Below, piece by piece: positions 3,754 to 44,000 of a DNA stretch of 64,000 nucleotides. The DNA is taken from the NCBI GenBank assembly GCA_045561295.1, contig JBJKYD010000010.1, positions 64,001-128,000 of the forward strand. The letters are read 5' to 3'. Made by a program: the position numbers and the translations under genes. How positions within the stretch are numbered: the first letter of the stretch is position 1; the number at the start of each line of letters is the position of its first letter. The DNA is from Gammaproteobacteria bacterium (GTDB lineage: Bacteria; Pseudomonadota; Gammaproteobacteria; GCA-002705445; GCA-002716945). Below the pieces are notes generated by a model. It did not search any database, had not been told where the DNA came from, and worked only from the letters and a program-made list of their open reading frames with translations.

Positions 3754-3896
3754 TTTCGCATGAAAAAGGTATTCTATATTAAATTATCAAGAATACTAGA
3801 TATAGCTGATAATTCACTTAAGGTGCATATTAATGTGTATTTTTGGTGCAATTTCCCTTATTATAGTCATGTTAACGTTAAACATTAGGGGAAAAC

Positions 3897-4964
3897 ATGA
3901 AAAAACTATTAAGTTTAGTACTACTTATGGGCCTTTCATCTTTATCTTATGCTGGCGGTCAAGCAATGAGTGGTAGTGAACATAACCATGCTTCTTCAGC
4001 TAAGGCATCTTCCGGAGTTCATTTCTATGGAAGATTGTACATAGGATATGATAAAACATCTGGATCAGTTCAAAGATTAGATGATGGTGGTAATAAAAGT
4101 AGATTGGGTCTTAAAATTAAATCTGGAAATATCATCGGAAACTTAGAATATAAATTCGATATTGGTGATGGTACAAGTGGCGCAGGTAATAACTGTGGTA
4201 CTAATAATGCAAATGGTTGTCAAACATTTGATATGCATGTAGGTAATCTTGGCTTTATGACACCTTTAGGTTATATAGGTGCTGGTACATTTGAAGCGCC
4301 ATATAAAACAATGGGGCAATTTGATACCAATATGGATACTGCTATCGCATTAAACTCTCATGGTGGATTTAGTCAAGGACAAGGTGGTATAGCTGGCAAC
4401 TTCGAAGGTGCTATGGCTTATCATGCAATGATGGGTCCGATAGAACTTGGGTTTATGTATGCAGCGACAGACAATACAGCTAATGACAATACAAATACAG
4501 ACAGAGGAGACTATTCTCTTGGTATTACATTTAAAGACATGGTCATGAGCGGTTTGACATTTGGATATGCAACGTATAATGATAATGAAGTTTCTGGGGG
4601 CGATAGTGAGAGTAATGACAAATTCTTTGCTTCTTACAAAGTAATGCCAAATATGGGCGTATTTGCATCTCTTGAAGATCTTGAAGTGGCAAATACTTTC
4701 ATAGCATCTAGTAATCTAGACGGTGAAATAAAAACCTTTGGTATTCACTACTCTATGGGCACAGCTGATTTACAACTAGTCACTGCAGAAGGTGAGGTAA
4801 GTTCAAGTGGAGCAGCTAATCAAGACTATAACACACGTAGTATCTCTGCGAAAATTAATCTAAGTAAACATTCAGATATTACAATTGGTTATACTAAGCA
4901 AGACTTTGATCAAGATGGAGCTGATGTCAGTACCTCTGGATTTGGACTAACACATAAATTTTAG
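3897..4964 (+). CDS. Outer-membrane porin, Gram-negative porin family (porin 1, acidic)
   Basis: Signal peptide, FYGRLY first strand, SRLGLK, amphipathic beta strands, C-terminal GLTHKF; SD AGGGGA upstream and a terminator downstream. Confidence 0.85.
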   Translation: MKKLLSLVLLMGLSSLSYAGGQAMSGSEHNHASSAKASSGVHFYGRLYIGYDKTSGSVQRLDDGGNKSRLGLKIKSGNIIGNLEYKFDIGDGTSGAGNNCGTNNANGCQTFDMHVGNLGFMTPLGYIGAGTFEAPYKTMGQFDTNMDTAIALNSHGGFSQGQGGIAGNFEGAMAYHAMMGPIELGFMYAATDNTANDNTNTDRGDYSLGITFKDMVMSGLTFGYATYNDNEVSGGDSESNDKFFASYKVMPNMGVFASLEDLEVANTFIASSNLDGEIKTFGIHYSMGTADLQLVTAEGEVSSSGAANQDYNTRSISAKINLSKHSDITIGYTKQDFDQDGADVSTSGFGLTHKF

Positions 4965-28677: not shown

Positions 28678-30045
28678 TTACATCAGAAAAGTTGCGATTC
28701 CCAAAAGTGAGACGAAACCAACAACATCTGTGATAGTGGTCAAAATCACACCGCCTGCGAGAGCTGGATCGATATCAAGCTTCTCTAAAATAAGAGGTAA
28801 GCTCACGCCACTTATCGCACCTACAATTAAATTGATCATCAATGCTGCAGCAATCACTCCACCGAGGAACATGCTATCAAACCATAGATAAACAATTCCT
28901 GCTACAACGCCAGACCAAATGATTCCATTTAATAATCCAATAGCAGACTCTTTATAGATGAGAAGTTTTGAGTTTGAGGATCCAATTTGATCAAGTGCTT
29001 GTGCTCTAATGACTAGTGCTAGACTTTGACTGCCCGCAATGCCACCCATACTTGCAACAATTGGCATTAAAATAGCTAAAGCTACAACTTTTTCTATTGT
29101 CGCTTCAAATATTCCAATGGCAGCGGCAGCTAAAAGTGCAGTGAGGAAGTTTGCGCCAAGCCATAATGTTCTTCTTTTAGTACTTTGTATGACAGGTGCA
29201 AAGATATCATCGTCCTTTTTAAGACCCGCCATGTTTAATACACTTTCATCAACCTCTTCTCTAATGACATCGACTACATCATCGACTGTAATCCTACCTA
29301 ATAAAAATCCTTGATTGTCCACCACAGCAGCGGATACTAAATCTGCGTTTTCAAATCGTCTTGAGACTTCGTGTTCTCCTAAATCTGGATCAATAGGGTC
29401 TTCATCTTTTTTCATGATTTGGAAAACATATTTTGAGGGTTCTGCAACTAAGACATCTTTTAATGAGACGAACCCGTGATACATATTTATTCTGTCAGTT
29501 ACAAATATTTTATCTGTTTGATCAGGTAAACTTTTCATTCGTCTTAAATATTTTAAAAGCACATCAACAGTTACATTACTTCTTATAGTAATGGTATCCG
29601 TGTTCATGAGCCCACCTGCTGTACCGTCTTCAAACGACAAAACTTTTTCGAGTCTTTCCTGATTTTGTTTGGTAAGACTCTTAATCGCTTTTCTAGTTAA
29701 GCCTTTTGGAAGAGATTGGATAATATCTGCAAGGTCGTCAGAATCAAGCTTCTCTGCAATCTTTACTAGACCTTCAGTTCCGTCTTTATCAATAAGTTCA
29801 TCAATTAAATTTTCTCGAACTTCATCATGTAGCTCAGCGAGTGTCTCACCTTTATTTTCATCGGTAACTAATGTCCATAAAAGATCCCTTCTGTTACGAG
29901 GTGTACTTTCTATGACATCAGCAATCTCAGATGGATATAGAGAATTGAGTAGATTTTTTGCTTTGATAACTGCGCCGCTATCAAGAACTTCTGAGAGTTG
30001 GTCAAGAGTGACAGTATTATCTTTATTAATGCTTTCTGCAGGCAT
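28678..30045 (-). CDS. mgtE: Magnesium transporter MgtE
   Basis: N-domain, CBS pair (TAGGLM, GRITVDDVVD), MPIVASMGG, DPALAGG..LTTITDV. Confidence 0.95.
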   Translation of the reverse strand: MPAESINKDNTVTLDQLSEVLDSGAVIKAKNLLNSLYPSEIADVIESTPRNRRDLLWTLVTDENKGETLAELHDEVRENLIDELIDKDGTEGLVKIAEKLDSDDLADIIQSLPKGLTRKAIKSLTKQNQERLEKVLSFEDGTAGGLMNTDTITIRSNVTVDVLLKYLRRMKSLPDQTDKIFVTDRINMYHGFVSLKDVLVAEPSKYVFQIMKKDEDPIDPDLGEHEVSRRFENADLVSAAVVDNQGFLLGRITVDDVVDVIREEVDESVLNMAGLKKDDDIFAPVIQSTKRRTLWLGANFLTALLAAAAIGIFEATIEKVVALAILMPIVASMGGIAGSQSLALVIRAQALDQIGSSNSKLLIYKESAIGLLNGIIWSGVVAGIVYLWFDSMFLGGVIAAALMINLIVGAISGVSLPLILEKLDIDPALAGGVILTTITDVVGFVSLLGIATFLM

Positions 30046-30103
30046 TGGTCTGACCTCTCTTGATTTTGTTTATTTTTTACATATTCCTGAGACAAAGATA
30101 ACA

Positions 30104-30131
30104 CAAAGGGCCTACTTAAGTAAGTAGGCCC
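30104..30131 (-). terminator. Terminator closing the porin 2 transcript
   Basis: GGGCCTACTT/AAGTAGGCCC stem (30108-30131) followed on the minus strand by TTTG. Confidence 0.75.
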
Positions 30132-30163
30132 CGATATATATAAATGAAATCTTTATCTTAAGA

Positions 30164-30225
30164 AGGCTAGCTGTCTATGAAATTAGGTTGGTTGTTAACG
30201 TCAAACTAATGGGGGCAGCTAGCCT
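30164..30225 (-). ncRNA. Candidate 3'-UTR-derived sRNA hairpin, antisense to the porin 1 leader
   Basis: Perfect 10-bp AGGCTAGCTG/CAGCTAGCCT stem, unpaired CCCCC internal loop, upper ATTAG/CTAAT stem, apical ACGTTAACA; complementary to 3870-3891. Expression not shown. Confidence 0.5.
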
Positions 30226-30246
30226 CTCATCTAGATCCAAAGAGGA

Positions 30247-31379
30247 TTAGAAGTCATGTCTTAGACCAAAGATATAAGTTCTAAAGTCTGTTGTGTTATT
30301 ATTTGCATCACCATCGTGATCAGAATAACCTGCGTAGAATCTACTTGTCTTAGATAGCTTGTATTGCATACCTACGTTGTAAGCAGTTCCATCACCTTCT
30401 GTAGCAGATCCTGCATCAGATTCAGTATTAGCAATTGAATACTGAAGCTTCATTGGACCTGATGAGTAGTGAATACCATACCAATCTACTTCACCTTCTG
30501 AGCTGTCGAACATTTTGCTGTCAATCTCAACATCTTCATGCATATACCATACTTTGACCTTTCTTTTATCAGCAAGTTTCATATCATATGTAATAGTATA
30601 TTTTTTGTTTTCTTTGTCAGCACTGTGATCTGTGGTTCATTGCATACACAAGACTTAAGCCTTTAATACCTAAGTTTTTGTACTCAAGACCGTAACCATA
30701 GTCTTTCTTGTTGTTTGCAGAATATGCAGCTTCGTCATGGTTACTGAAACCTCTAATAGCAGCAAATCTGAAGTTACCAGCTTTAAGCTCGTAAAAACCA
30801 GCTGTTCTCCAATAACCTGAATGAGACATACTACCTTGTGAGATACCACGTGTGTCTCTCATTTGCGCTAATGTATCATGCAAGATATCGTGTTTAGCAA
30901 GAAATTTATAAGGTGATTCCATAGAACCAAACTTAAATTGACCATATGGAGTTAAAAGACCTAACCAAGATTGTTTGTTGGTAAATGCATTTGCTTTAAA
31001 CCCTGCTTCATTATCCCGAGTCATTTGCAACATCTTCACCGTCTGTTCCAGATGAGTCTCCATCACCAAGATCTATCGCCCACTCAACTTTATAGTTGAC
31101 TGAATAGCCATTGCCGATAGAGCTTTTACCTTTAAAGCCCATACGAGCCATACCTTCATCATCAAAGATTGTGGTGTTAGCTTCTCCACCGGCTTTTTTT
31201 GTATTACTGTATTGAGACCAAAGTCGACCATAAAGCTTCGCACTAGAGCCTTTTTTAAGAGCTGGAGATGCGACTGCTTCGTTTGGTTTGATGACAGAAT
31301 TTGTCATAGCACCACCCGTGAAACCGACTAAAGGAACTGCAAGTAAAGCAAGTACAAGATATTTTTGTAATTGTTTCAT
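30247..31379 (-). pseudogene. Porin 2, a paralogue of porin 1 under Pho boxes, split by two +1 frameshifts (real pseudogene or sequencing error)
   Basis: The three ORFs join into one ~376-aa porin (signal peptide, LYGRLW, DLGDG, TPYG, ESPYK, C-terminal GLRHDF) if one base is removed at 31015-31017 and one at 30634-30635. Confidence 0.8.
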
Positions 31380-31460
31380 ATTTCCTCTTTGTTTAATAAC
31401 GTTAAATTTTTCCCTAAATAAGGAATAGTCAAAGGATATAAAACTAAAGTGAAAAGTTTT

Positions 31461-31511
31461 AATAAATGTATATGAAAGATTTATATATGAAATATGACAG
31501 AATTATGAATC
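31461..31511 (-). promoter_or_regulatory. Pho box array upstream of porin 2
   Basis: Minus strand GATTCAT-AATT-CTGTCAT-ATTT-CATATAT-AAAT-CTTTCAT-ATAC-ATTTATT; 11-bp period with one perfect CTGTCAT. Confidence 0.82.
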
Positions 31512-31514
31512 ATG

Positions 31515-31955
31515 TTAGGTTTCATTTTTTTTTAATATAGCGTTTAACCTTGAGCCTATATCTTGATAAATTTCGAGTAATTTTTGTTTTCTCTCATTAA
31601 AGTCTACGATATCTGCAGGGTCTGAATAACTCCAGTGAAGATTGTTCAAACAGTTTGTATAGACAGGGCATGCATCTTTAGCGTTATCACAAACTGTAAT
31701 TGCATAATCAAATTTATTGTTATTGCTCTCACTAAAAATATTAATGCTTTTAGATTTAAGCTTATTTATTGGATACCCCAACTCTTTTGCAATTTCTAAA
31801 GCAGCAGGATTAATTATACCTGTAGGGTTGGAGCCTGCAGAAAAACCTATGAAATATTCATTGGTCAGAAGATTAGCAGCCATTTCTCCCATAATAGAGC
31901 GTGCAGAATTACCAGTGCAGATAAATAAAACACTATGTTGTTTGGGATAGCTCAT
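31515..31955 (-). CDS. arsC: Arsenate reductase, LMW-PTPase / thioredoxin type
   Basis: P-loop CTGNSARS, TVCDNAKDACP redox pair, HW...DP. Confidence 0.88.
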   Translation of the reverse strand: MSYPKQHSVLFICTGNSARSIMGEMAANLLTNEYFIGFSAGSNPTGIINPAALEIAKELGYPINKLKSKSINIFSESNNNKFDYAITVCDNAKDACPVYTNCLNNLHWSYSDPADIVDFNERKQKLLEIYQDIGSRLNAILKKNET

Positions 31956-32844
31956 CTATTACACCTTCTCTTATCCCACCATTAGATTTATAGATATCAG
32001 ATATATTGATTGTATTAATTATACAATTGAGAATAACTAGGCTAGCTGGTAGAACACTCAGTCGATAGGAATCAATATAATTTTTTAATTCACTATTTTT
32101 TGATTGTATTTTTTTTGGATTATTCATTAGATCTAGAAAGTTTTCTTTAATTACAGCGCCTTTTGGTTTTTGTAATATTTGACAAGCGCGATAGGCTGTT
32201 TTAAATGATCCTGATGTTCCATAGACCGCTTTATTATTTTTAAATGAAAGTTCAGAGACATTTTCTTTAGCCAAATGACTCTTAATGTAATCATTCGCTT
32301 CATTATATGGAAAAGTATTATAGCCTGAGTACATCTTTGTCAATGATGCACTTCCAATTTGGAGACTAATAATTTTAGATATTTTATTTTCACTAACTTT
32401 TATAATTTCTGTACTTGATCCTCCAATATCTAAAATAAAATATTTTTTTTCTTTCAAATCATTGGTGGATGAAACGCCCCTAAACGCAAGATACCCCTCT
32501 TCATCAGGACTGATGACATTAATTTGATGTCCTAAAATATTCTCAACATTTTTTACAAAAGATTGATCCTTTATGTTTCTAAAAGAATTAGTGGCAATAA
32601 TTCTAAAGTTATCAGGTTTCTGATTATCGATGATTTCCTTAAATTCACTGAAAAGTTGGAAGAATTTTTTTTCTTTGTATTTATTAATATGTCCTTTGAG
32701 GGTAGTTGAGGCGATAATATCTGTATATTCCTTATATTTGAATATACTTTTGACTTCATTTTTTTTAAATGTAACAAATTTAATATTAAATGTGTTTGAA
32801 CCTAAATCAAGCACGCCTACTTTCTTTTCTAATTCTTCAGTCAA
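31933..32844 (-). CDS. ppx: Exopolyphosphatase, short Ppx/GppA family
   Basis: LDLGSNT, ATNSFR, EEG, DIGGSSTE, GIREG; follows ppk1. Confidence 0.85.
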   Translation of the reverse strand: MTEELEKKVGVLDLGSNTFNIKFVTFKKNEVKSIFKYKEYTDIIASTTLKGHINKYKEKKFFQLFSEFKEIIDNQKPDNFRIIATNSFRNIKDQSFVKNVENILGHQINVISPDEEGYLAFRGVSSTNDLKEKKYFILDIGGSSTEIIKVSENKISKIISLQIGSASLTKMYSGYNTFPYNEANDYIKSHLAKENVSELSFKNNKAVYGTSGSFKTAYRACQILQKPKGAVIKENFLDLMNNPKKIQSKNSELKNYIDSYRLSVLPASLVILNCIINTINISDIYKSNGGIREGVIDELSQTT

Positions 32845-39772: not shown

Positions 39773-40414
39773 TTAACTTCTGATGTAATTATATGTCTTG
39801 GTTGCTAAATAAGCTCCAATGAGCTGAGCGAAGATGAATCCAATTATATTGGTAGGATCTATCCCTGTATAGGTGTCAGTAAACGAACGCGCAATTGTAA
39901 TTGCTGGATTAGCAAATGAGGTTGAGGAAGTGAAAAAGTATCCCGCCCCTATATAAACACCTACAATAACACCAACTGATAAATCATTTCTTTTCTGGGA
40001 CATGCAAATGATAAAAACCAATAAAAATGAAGCAATGATCTCTGAAAAGATAATATTTCCTCCACTCCTGTCTTTCGTACTAAAATCAAGAATACTCATA
40101 TCAAACATGATATGAACAAAAACTACACCTACTATAGCCCCCAACACATGACTAAGAACATATCTAAAAAAATCTATTTTTTCTAACTTGCCTTGCATAT
40201 AAAAACTCAAGGATACTGCAGGATTAAAATGTGCTCCGGATATTTCTCTAAAAGTCATGATAATCACAATAAGAATAGCTGCTGTTGAAACTGAGTTTAT
40301 TAATAAAGTGATGCCCTCAATACCTTCGCTTATGTTTTGAGCCATAATGCCACTTCCTACAACACCCATAGTAAGGATCATCATGCCAAGAAACTCTGAT
40401 ATTATTTTTTTCAT
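39773..40414 (-). CDS. aqpS: MIP channel, AqpS-type arsenite-conducting aquaglyceroporin
   Basis: VVGSGIMA, SGAHFNPAVS and TSSTSFANPA motifs of the ars-associated MIP subfamily. Confidence 0.8.
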   Translation of the reverse strand: MKKIISEFLGMMILTMGVVGSGIMAQNISEGIEGITLLINSVSTAAILIVIIMTFREISGAHFNPAVSLSFYMQGKLEKIDFFRYVLSHVLGAIVGVVFVHIMFDMSILDFSTKDRSGGNIIFSEIIASFLLVFIICMSQKRNDLSVGVIVGVYIGAGYFFTSSTSFANPAITIARSFTDTYTGIDPTNIIGFIFAQLIGAYLATKTYNYIRS

Positions 40415-41569: not shown

Positions 41570-41598
41570 ATTAAATATTTATTACAGATTTATGAATC
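41570..41598 (-). promoter_or_regulatory. Pho box array upstream of pstS
   Basis: Minus strand GATTCAT-AAAT-CTGTAAT-AAAT-ATTTAAT, 11-bp period, overlapping the phoR stop. Confidence 0.82.
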
Positions 41599-42813: not shown

Positions 42814-42884
42814 AATAGCTAGCTGATTTTTACTATTGAATATAACGAGTTCATGATAATATTTAAAACCATAATATCAGATAT

Positions 42885-44000
42885 ATGACAGATATAATAT
42901 TCCACAAATCAAGTAAATACATCGAAGATGACATAGACTATTATGCATCAGACACTCGCGATAAACACGGTGCTGTAAAACCAAGTAAGAATATCAAAAG
43001 CTATACATTGGATTCAGATAGTTTTGATAATGACGCTGAGCTACCATCTTTATACTATCCGTTTCAAAAACATTCTATAGATAGAGTTTATCTAGGAATT
43101 AGTTTTCCGCTTTATGCCAATAATTGGGGTGCAGAATTTTTAAGATATCTTATGTATGTAATTAAAAAAGATGGAGCGGTAATATTTCCAGTTTACGCTG
43201 AAAGACAAGGTGTTGAGAAAAACTATTGGTCGAGAAGTATTCTAGAAGTTGCTTTCCAAAGCAGGCAGAAATGGTGGGGTATGAGTAATATATGGGCGGA
43301 GAATGATGGCGTAATGTCAATGCGTATCGGTAAGAAAGAGCCTAAGGTTCGTAATAGTACTTTTACTTATTTTATTGATAAGGCATTGCCTAAACTTTAT
43401 CAAGAAAATAAATTAAATGAATTACAAAATGAAATAGATAATCAAAATGAAAATTTACGTCTCAGTGCAGTCGTTGAGAAAATAATTCTTGATAACCACG
43501 GAAGAAATAAAAAAATCAACCTTGGAGTTCTCAGTAATAGTAACTTACTTGGCATGGAATTAGCATGCAGTGATTATATGAATATCAAAAAAACAAAAGT
43601 CTATTCCTCTAATGAAGATAATATTGATGCTTATTCTGAGTACCTTCCTAAAGATACGGCATCAAGTTTCAATCGTTTGATTGGCAATTTAAATGAGTGT
43701 GACTTTGATAGTGAACATAATGTATTTTTAATAGATGAAAAATTTTGTAATGAAGATTTAAGTAAACATATAATAGGTAAAGCTCTTGATAGTCTTCAAA
43801 ATGATGGATTCATTATTATAGTGAATAGACATATACAAAATAATTATAAATCATCGGATTATTCTCATACCGTAGGTACAAAACTTAAAACTGGCTATGA
43901 TATACCACACTACTCTGATCTTATTTTTGATGAGCTTAAAGCTGAAAATGAAAATAGAGAGTCAGCAGTTCAAGTAATACATAAAAAAGACAATGTATGA
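42885..44000 (+). CDS. Hypothetical protein, possibly two degenerate methyltransferase-like folds
   Basis: 371-aa ORF overlapping the next gene; the fold assignment rests on weak motif resemblance only. Confidence 0.7.
   Translation: MTDIIFHKSSKYIEDDIDYYASDTRDKHGAVKPSKNIKSYTLDSDSFDNDAELPSLYYPFQKHSIDRVYLGISFPLYANNWGAEFLRYLMYVIKKDGAVIFPVYAERQGVEKNYWSRSILEVAFQSRQKWWGMSNIWAENDGVMSMRIGKKEPKVRNSTFTYFIDKALPKLYQENKLNELQNEIDNQNENLRLSAVVEKIILDNHGRNKKINLGVLSNSNLLGMELACSDYMNIKKTKVYSSNEDNIDAYSEYLPKDTASSFNRLIGNLNECDFDSEHNVFLIDEKFCNEDLSKHIIGKALDSLQNDGFIIIVNRHIQNNYKSSDYSHTVGTKLKTGYDIPHYSDLIFDELKAENENRESAVQVIHKKDNV

Follow-up and report, generated by a model that had tools for sequence, protein, structure and literature searches.

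Introduction

The closest described counterpart of the element reported here is s-SodF of Streptomyces coelicolor, which is presented as a small RNA that arises by processing from the sodF 3'UTR and represses sodN (PMC3919588), and which a review on small RNAs from mRNA 3' ends lists as Hfq-independent (PMC9438474). Among the regulators of porins, MicF and MicC of Escherichia coli are described as antisense RNAs that block translation initiation of porin mRNAs, each of them encoded beside a porin gene that is not its target, micF next to ompC and micC next to ompN (PMC1976385). MalH of E. coli, which arises from the malG 3' end of a nutrient-uptake operon, is reported to lower the general porins while a specialised porin is favoured (PMC8081044, PMC9438474).

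The element that we describe lies in the 3'UTR of a porin gene, here called porin 2, at the end of the Pho cluster of a marine gammaproteobacterium. We consider that this 3'UTR acts as an antisense repressor of a second porin gene, porin 1, in analogy to s-SodF, and assign this predicted function a probability of roughly 55 %. MicF and MicC are separate, divergently transcribed genes, whereas the porin 2 element is a 3'UTR in a genus without hfq and has no match in Rfam. MalH, as far as the sources cited above describe it, originates from a transporter operon, belongs to an Hfq network and acts partly via MicA, while the porin 2 element belongs to the porin gene itself and is unrelated in sequence. 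In Staphylococcus aureus, small RNAs with C-rich (UCCC) loops such as the Rsa RNAs use unpaired pyrimidine-rich motifs to pair with Shine–Dalgarno sequences without Hfq; these RNAs come from another phylum and resemble the porin 2 element in principle only.

The likeness to s-SodF concerns the layout, as two isoforms are described there as inversely expressed under one nutrient regulator, an arrangement that we propose for the porins as well. In contrast to s-SodF, which involves superoxide dismutases, nickel and Nur in an actinobacterium, the present case concerns porins, phosphate and PhoB in a proteobacterium; there is no sequence relationship between the two, and the RNA species, its processing and its effect are predictions in the case of porin 2. 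The statement in the first-pass annotation of this DNA that no example of such a switch had been described was too strong, since s-SodF is reported to follow the same design (PMC3919588). In the literature on small or UTR-derived RNAs, porins and PhoB or phosphate limitation, covered by title and the beginning of the abstract, we found no description of an element of this type. Other bacteria are known to use this design, which is not known from plankton that is so streamlined and lacks Hfq.

Results and Discussion

The window, by which we mean the complete 64,000-nucleotide stretch of DNA that was analysed, belongs to an assembly that comprises 1.03 Mb on 19 contigs, has a G+C content of 31.9 % and is 92 % complete and 6.8 % contaminated. 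The sequencing runs that contain the stretch are seawater or marine metatranscriptomes. Its minus strand carries a Pho cluster comprising, in this order, phoR, pstS, a gene for a MIP-family channel, pstC, pstA, pstB, phoU, phoB, ppk, ppx, a low-molecular-weight phosphatase gene, porin 2 (Porin_4) and mgtE, and the 3'UTR element of porin 2 sits at the end of this cluster on the same strand. The MIP-family channel between pstS and pstC (39773–40414, minus strand) and the phosphatase following ppx, a member of the ArsC-like fold family (31515–31955, minus strand), may represent an arsenate-handling pair within the Pho cluster.

Porin 1 is encoded on the plus strand at 3897–4964 and comprises 355 aa. 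It is an acidic paralogue of porin 2, sharing 28 % identity with an intact porin 2 (E = 2e-30). The acidic nature ascribed to it beforehand was borne out by a pI of 4.73 and a net charge of −17 with 20 K+R, compared to a pI of 6.1 and 40 K+R for an intact porin 2 orthologue. Porin 1 is present in all 13 genomes of the genus; in two of the assemblies, G010 (L026) and G003 (L030), its frame is interrupted, leaving open frames of 239 and 194 aa, respectively, behind intact leaders.

Porin 2 occupies 30247–31379 on the minus strand and is split in this assembly into the frames 31379–31011, 31072–30617 and 30636–30247, all three of which give Pfam matches to the Porin_4 family; the first-pass annotation had overlooked this split. 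Its orthologues are intact and 365–374 aa long, and comparison with these relatives reveals about 19 surplus bases near 31027–30999 as well as a single one at 30631. Base 30631 is missing from the contigs of all four seawater RNA libraries, which stem from four studies, and near 31013–31021 the RNA-library contigs show length differences of −1, −1 or +2 from the assembly, so that the frame is restored. On the strength of these contigs, the likeliest source of the frame breaks is an assembly error or a rare variant. The stretch 30990–31050 of porin 2 is hypervariable.

Upstream of porin 2 we located Pho-box-like 11-bp repeats (31468–31511, minus strand) that have GATTCATAAWTCTGTMATA in common with the region upstream of pstS, and Pho-box-like motifs are likewise found upstream of pstS itself (41570–41598) and of phoR (42874–42891). 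A scan with a general Pho-box consensus returned five matches, with 3.39 expected. As the repeats are akin to those of pstS and phoR, porin 2 and with it the 3'UTR should rise under phosphate limitation, with PhoB as the putative regulator of porin 2. RNA-library contigs from three of the four studies reach from the coding part of porin 2 into the hairpin described below, which is compatible with its transcription; such contigs carry neither strand nor ends, do not reveal small RNA species, and RNA libraries can contain DNA. In the RNA-contig set X10 some bins of the 3'UTR are without cover. One RNA-library contig (X4) ends at 30078, 33 nt upstream of the mgtE start codon, with 14 T that are absent from the genome.

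The minus-strand hairpin that the first-pass annotation had placed between the porin 2 stop codon and its terminator was recovered as a two-helix fold. This hairpin 1 extends over 30160–30228 on the minus strand in the porin 2 3'UTR and consists of an outer stem of 10 bp (30216–30225 with 30164–30173), an unpaired 5' internal loop CCCCC (30211–30215), an inner stem of 5 bp (30206–30210 with 30182–30186) and an apical loop of 19 nt (30187–30205). A 156-nt minus-strand stretch folds with −48.9 kcal/mol (z = −4.82), and none of 200 shuffles gave an equal fold. Between hairpin 1 and the terminator lies an A/U-rich spacer (30133–30159, minus strand), in which the block TTCAT..ATATATA is found in eight of eight aligned elements. 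The terminator and its U-rich tail (30093–30132, minus strand, with the hairpin proper at 30107–30132) were located by terminator scan and fold; featuring 11 pairs, six of them G-C, a 4-nt loop and the tail TTGTGTTATC, the structure corresponds to an intrinsic (Rho-independent) terminator. The stop codon (30247–30249), hairpin 1 and the shared terminator are arranged on one strand in all eight genomes that were compared, and the position between stop codon and terminator is the one seen in 3'UTR-derived trans-acting sRNAs of the s-SodF, CpxQ and MalH type.

Scanning 29000–32000 against Rfam 15 with E values up to 1 gave no match at the element and three weak eukaryote-type matches elsewhere, and homology to the Rfam families of the enterobacterial porin sRNAs (MicF, MicC, MicA) was likewise not found at the element. 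Both strands of the element region were checked for small ORFs with a start codon, and none was present. A leader of the downstream mgtE gene, acting as riboswitch or attenuator, was considered as well and rejected: three genomes (G006, G008, G011) keep mgtE, the spacer and the terminator while lacking hairpin 1, an extra gene parts hairpin 1 from mgtE in three others (G001, G005, G012), and there is no Rfam match.

A covariance model was built on eight sequences of the genus and used to search 13 genomes of this genus and 24 genomes from five other genera of the family. It retrieved one copy of the hairpin in each of eight of the 13 genus genomes, and these are exactly the eight that carry a porin 2 orthologue. 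In none of the 24 sister-genus genomes was the hairpin found, although mgtE still comes after a porin gene there, the two being separated by short spacers. The loop pattern was also sought in 185,579 species genomes, where it occurs at 22 loci; the eight that have the full element are the sequences of the relatives already compared, the others being isolated chance matches in unrelated taxa. Among 44 loci from a metagenome scan, 13 have the element, in 12 cases complete and in one without spacer and terminator; they do not count towards loop invariance because the search pattern fixed the loop. In the metagenome variant without spacer and terminator (L091:2864-2978), hairpin 1 is joined straight to the mgtE leader. 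Judged by these genomes, the element occurs within a single genus only, which belongs to a marine lineage that is uncultured.

In a count over 13 stem pairs and eight sequences, 90.4 % of the cells are paired, compared to 10–63 % when the partners are slid, and the unpaired cells stem from two rows that MAFFT had set out of register. Three stem pairs are changed on both sides, and the covariation score was reached by none of 500 shuffles. Six G-U cells in the stems would become A-C mismatches if read on the opposite strand, and a U-G intermediate found in a metagenome variant fits the porin-2-sense strand only. When the distinct variants were folded singly, the same architecture was obtained in 14 of 14 cases. 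Since the compensatory changes and the G-U pairs fit that strand only, this comparison of sequences establishes the hairpin structure as real and as belonging to the porin-2-sense strand, and the covariation that the first-pass annotation had asked for is present.

A neighbouring gene for a small outer-membrane protein served as an internal control, as its 3'UTR contains a hairpin with a covarying stem and a variable loop. The gene, located before mgtE, encodes a protein of 122–141 aa whose N-terminus is signal-like and which ends in a C-terminal F; it comes after porin 2 in G001, G005 and G012 (L004, L005, L006; about 90–520 nt past the stop codon) and stands directly after phoB, upstream of mgtE, in G006, G008 and G011 (L011, L019, L020). 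After its 3'UTR hairpin, the TTCAT..ATATATA spacer recurs as a second copy, followed by the terminator and GTGTTATCTT.

On the side of the presumed target, the porin 1 leader (3870–3896, plus strand) contains a target block at 3870–3883 and the Shine–Dalgarno sequence GGGG at 3888–3891, which ends 5 nt upstream of the ATG at 3897. The 13-nt target block is intact in nine of the 11 readable porin 1 leaders of the genus, with GGGG at a nearly fixed distance. Situated 5 nt before the block is a conserved TAnnAT hexamer (3859–3864, plus strand), a possible −10 element, which occurs at the same distance in all 11 leaders. If the hexamer is a −10 element, the porin 1 mRNA would begin at the target block, and we place the putative transcription start there. 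A consensus promoter scan did not call TAnnAT, its sole sigma-70 consensus match being at 3784–3813. This match is a perfect mirror promoter-like site, TTATCA-18-GATAAT, that reads on both strands of the divergent region between a class-III aminotransferase gene and porin 1, and it is conserved in the closest relatives only. At 3840–3858, 5' of TAnnAT, the block TTTTTGGTGCAA and a C-rich stretch are nearly invariant in the 11 porin 1 leaders; no promoter type or regulator matching this block was identified.

All sequence statements made earlier about the two loci hold, as the plus strand reads TGTTAACGTCAAAC-TAAT-GGGG at 30193–30214 and TGTTAACGTTAAAC-ATTA-GGGG at 3870–3891. The pairing deduced from them, namely 14 contiguous pairs (13 Watson–Crick and one G-U) followed by a 4x4 loop and CCCC/GGGG, was reproduced by duplexfold with −25.8 kcal/mol. 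The proposed antisense segment (30193–30215, minus strand) is composed of the seed at 30193–30206, which includes the loop block and the last stem base, the inner-stem arm and the internal loop at 30211–30215. Its core TTAACGTTAA is palindromic, and ten of the 14 pairs are expected from any shared palindromic site. The cognate duplex comprises 18 bp in this genome (G000), 21 in G004, 24 in G001, 23 in G012, 22 in G010 and 23 in G009, these six being the genomes that have both partners. It spans the leader motif through GGGG(AA) and thus reaches beyond the 10-nt palindromic core, the pairing in the present genome being the weakest among the six. Seed and target, whose conservation had been named as a check, are both kept, with 21–24 bp of complementarity including the Shine–Dalgarno sequence in the relatives vs. 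18 here; a conserved seed near the ribosome binding site, as in 3'UTR-derived trans-acting sRNAs, is therefore found in six of six genomes. Two genomes, G009 and G010, have A for G as the last base of the inner stem, and T for C both at its intramolecular partner and at the target base. This compensatory exchange between element and target counts as one event in two sister genomes, and G012 shows a mismatch at the covarying position.

Within the element, the 13-nt loop block TTTGACGTTAACA is invariant in eight of eight genomes, a set that homology to porin 2 or the covariance model had yielded independently of the loop, while the flanks are about 70 % identical. The stems vary, as do the internal loop on the 3' side and the 3' portion of the apical loop; the invariant block coincides exactly with the pairing part. 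Opposite GGGG, all variants have pyrimidines at the four positions of the internal loop (CCCC, CCTT, TCCT, CCCT), and by these exchanges of C-G to U-G the pairing to GGGG is kept.

This pattern bears on the explanation that the hairpin serves the porin 2 mRNA purely in cis, be it by stabilising the 3' end, as a processing site or as a termination aid, with the complementarity being the relic of an inverted porin leader copy that has no effect in trans. The place between stop codon and terminator is a common site of protective stem–loops, the small outer-membrane-protein gene nearby has a similarly placed covarying hairpin, and the sequence AACGTTA..AAAC common to both porin leaders makes an origin from a leader plausible. 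A stabiliser, however, has no need of an invariant 13-nt loop, and the loop of the control hairpin does vary. A relic would be expected to decay, yet the relatives retain 21–24 bp of complementarity amid the diverged flanks, and their internal loop drifts by pyrimidine exchange only, which preserves the pairing with GGGG. We therefore regard a cis-only role as unlikely, though deserving to be kept in mind.

Genomes with neither porin 2 nor the hairpin retain the leader motif as well, with 14 of 14 positions in G003 (98 % complete) and three changes in G011 (96 % complete), which means that the conservation of the target has another cause. One such cause might be a protein that recognises TGTTAACGTYAAAC (site TGTTAACGT) at both loci, either a repressor that binds DNA just past the presumed −10 element of porin 1 or a protein that binds RNA. 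The palindromic core with its central CG agrees with this idea, such palindromes being a feature of many operator sites, as do the location 5 nt past the conserved hexamer in porin 1, the retention of the site in the two hairpin-less genomes and the fact that the 10-mer occurs at only three places of the genome, the porin 1 leader and two positions inside coding sequence. For a DNA site, on the other hand, there would be no need of stems on either side that show compensatory and G-U changes; the 14-mers of the two loci disagree at five of 14 positions when compared in the same RNA sense, vs. one of 14 as antisense, and the complementarity runs past the motif through the Shine–Dalgarno sequence. 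A LacI-type operator is further disfavoured by the helix–turn–helix domain PF00356 not being found in this genome (92 % complete), the survey covering the LacI family only. A shared protein site thus appears improbable to us as an account of both loci.

Taken alone, the 14-mer match is not beyond chance. The motif with up to two mismatches occurs twice in the window vs. 0.96 times expected, at least two occurrences being seen in 24 of 100 shuffles, and 368 of 427 random 143-nt stretches downstream of genes have a contiguous run of the same quality against one start region or another. In an A+T-rich genome, these control values are what a chance resemblance would have in its favour. What lifts the match above chance is the identity of the partner, a paralogous porin, together with the comparative data. 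When hybridisation was combined with accessibilities, the porin 1 start region ranked first among 3029 candidates derived from 1111 crude ORFs (−12.0 vs. −9.8 kcal/mol), as the first-pass annotation had predicted for an IntaRNA-like ranking; in this run, 1485 of 1921 regions were stopped early, being unable to reach −7 kcal/mol even before the target term. With the 27-nt exposed segment alone, porin 1 again took the first rank (−25.8 vs. −21.4, z = −5.9). Further predicted targets include a TonB-dependent receptor (−8.6 kcal/mol) and a 201-aa membrane protein with TTAACGTCAAA upstream, and no pattern was established among these two. A coincidence would have to hit the one paralogous porin among 1111 ORFs, would have to recur as 21–24 bp of complementarity in five further genomes and would have to let the pairing block coincide with the invariant block, which leaves it hardly credible.

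The hairpin loop might alternatively pair with the leader of porin 2 itself, as a contact between 5' and 3'UTR or as feedback, instead of with porin 1. Porin 2 does have a leader motif of its own, TTTAACGTTATTAAAC (31391–31406, minus strand), immediately 5' of its Shine–Dalgarno sequence, and the first 9 nt of its 3'UTR, TCCTCTTTG (30238–30246, minus strand), are complementary in this genome to the Shine–Dalgarno region CAAAGAGGA (31382–31390, minus strand). The predicted pairing of the hairpin with the porin 2 leader is weak, however, with a total energy of −4.6 vs. −12.0 kcal/mol for porin 1, and AACGTTA alone is conserved in the porin 2 leaders of the relatives. The complementarity of the 3'UTR start is lost in G010 and G009, where TCCTCTTTG becomes TCCTTAATG or TCCTTAACG without a matching change in the leader. 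Pairing of this kind is accordingly very unlikely to be the purpose of the loop.

Returning to the repression of porin 1, we searched for the RNA chaperones whose presence had been put forward as a check. This check gave a negative outcome: hfq (PF17209) was found in none of the 13 genus genomes, including six with a completeness of 90 % or more and a contamination of no more than 5 %, and ProQ (PF04352) was not found in the present genome (92 % complete). MicF and MicC are Hfq-dependent, and the Hfq that accompanies the enterobacterial porin sRNAs (MicF, MicC, MicA) has no counterpart in the genomes surveyed. Based on the long complementarity and the seed exposed in a loop, we propose an Hfq-independent mode for the porin 2 element.

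Under phosphate limitation, PhoB would switch on porin 2, and its 3'UTR could be active while still part of the entire mRNA or after processing to a fragment of about 120–140 nt that ends at the shared terminator. The apical loop would first touch the initial bases of the porin 1 leader, from where pairing would extend across the weak inner stem of 5 bp and reach the pyrimidine-rich internal loop. There the internal loop would mask the porin 1 Shine–Dalgarno sequence GGGG and block ribosome binding, perhaps with destabilisation of the mRNA as a further effect. In this way the hairpin probably shuts off porin 1 once porin 2 is on, and the cell would replace porin 1, the acidic general porin, with the more basic porin 2. 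That such an RNA exists, has these ends and acts as a repressor is what we infer from the letters of these genomes. Of the porin switch interpretation offered by the first-pass annotation, the structure, the strand, the conservation, the complementarity and the rank of the target stood up to the analysis, whereas the presence of a chaperone and the claim of novelty did not.

Conclusion

We describe a candidate riboregulator that would be specific to one genus, independent of chaperones and housed in the 3'UTR of an accessory Pho-regulon porin, and that would exchange porins when phosphate is scarce in a marine gammaproteobacterium with a genome of about 1 Mb and no Hfq. For this description as a whole, we see the odds as about even. 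How ocean bacteria with streamlined genomes exert post-transcriptional control has hardly been explored, and the genomes concerned here have few regulators and no Hfq. If the proposal is true, the logic of s-SodF, in which the 3'UTR of one isoform silences the other, would reach the envelope proteins of Gram-negative bacteria; as the principle is already known, this is a gain in breadth, not in kind. The hairpin and its pairing with the leader would moreover provide a sequence-defined marker that may be traced in metatranscriptomes along phosphate gradients. For the organism itself, a porin swap hard-wired in a 3'UTR would amount to compact regulation suited to a very small genome, with the porin 2 mRNA serving as message and regulator at once, and streamlined plankton would be able to gain base-pairing regulators through an inverted copy of the target leader placed behind an antagonistic gene.
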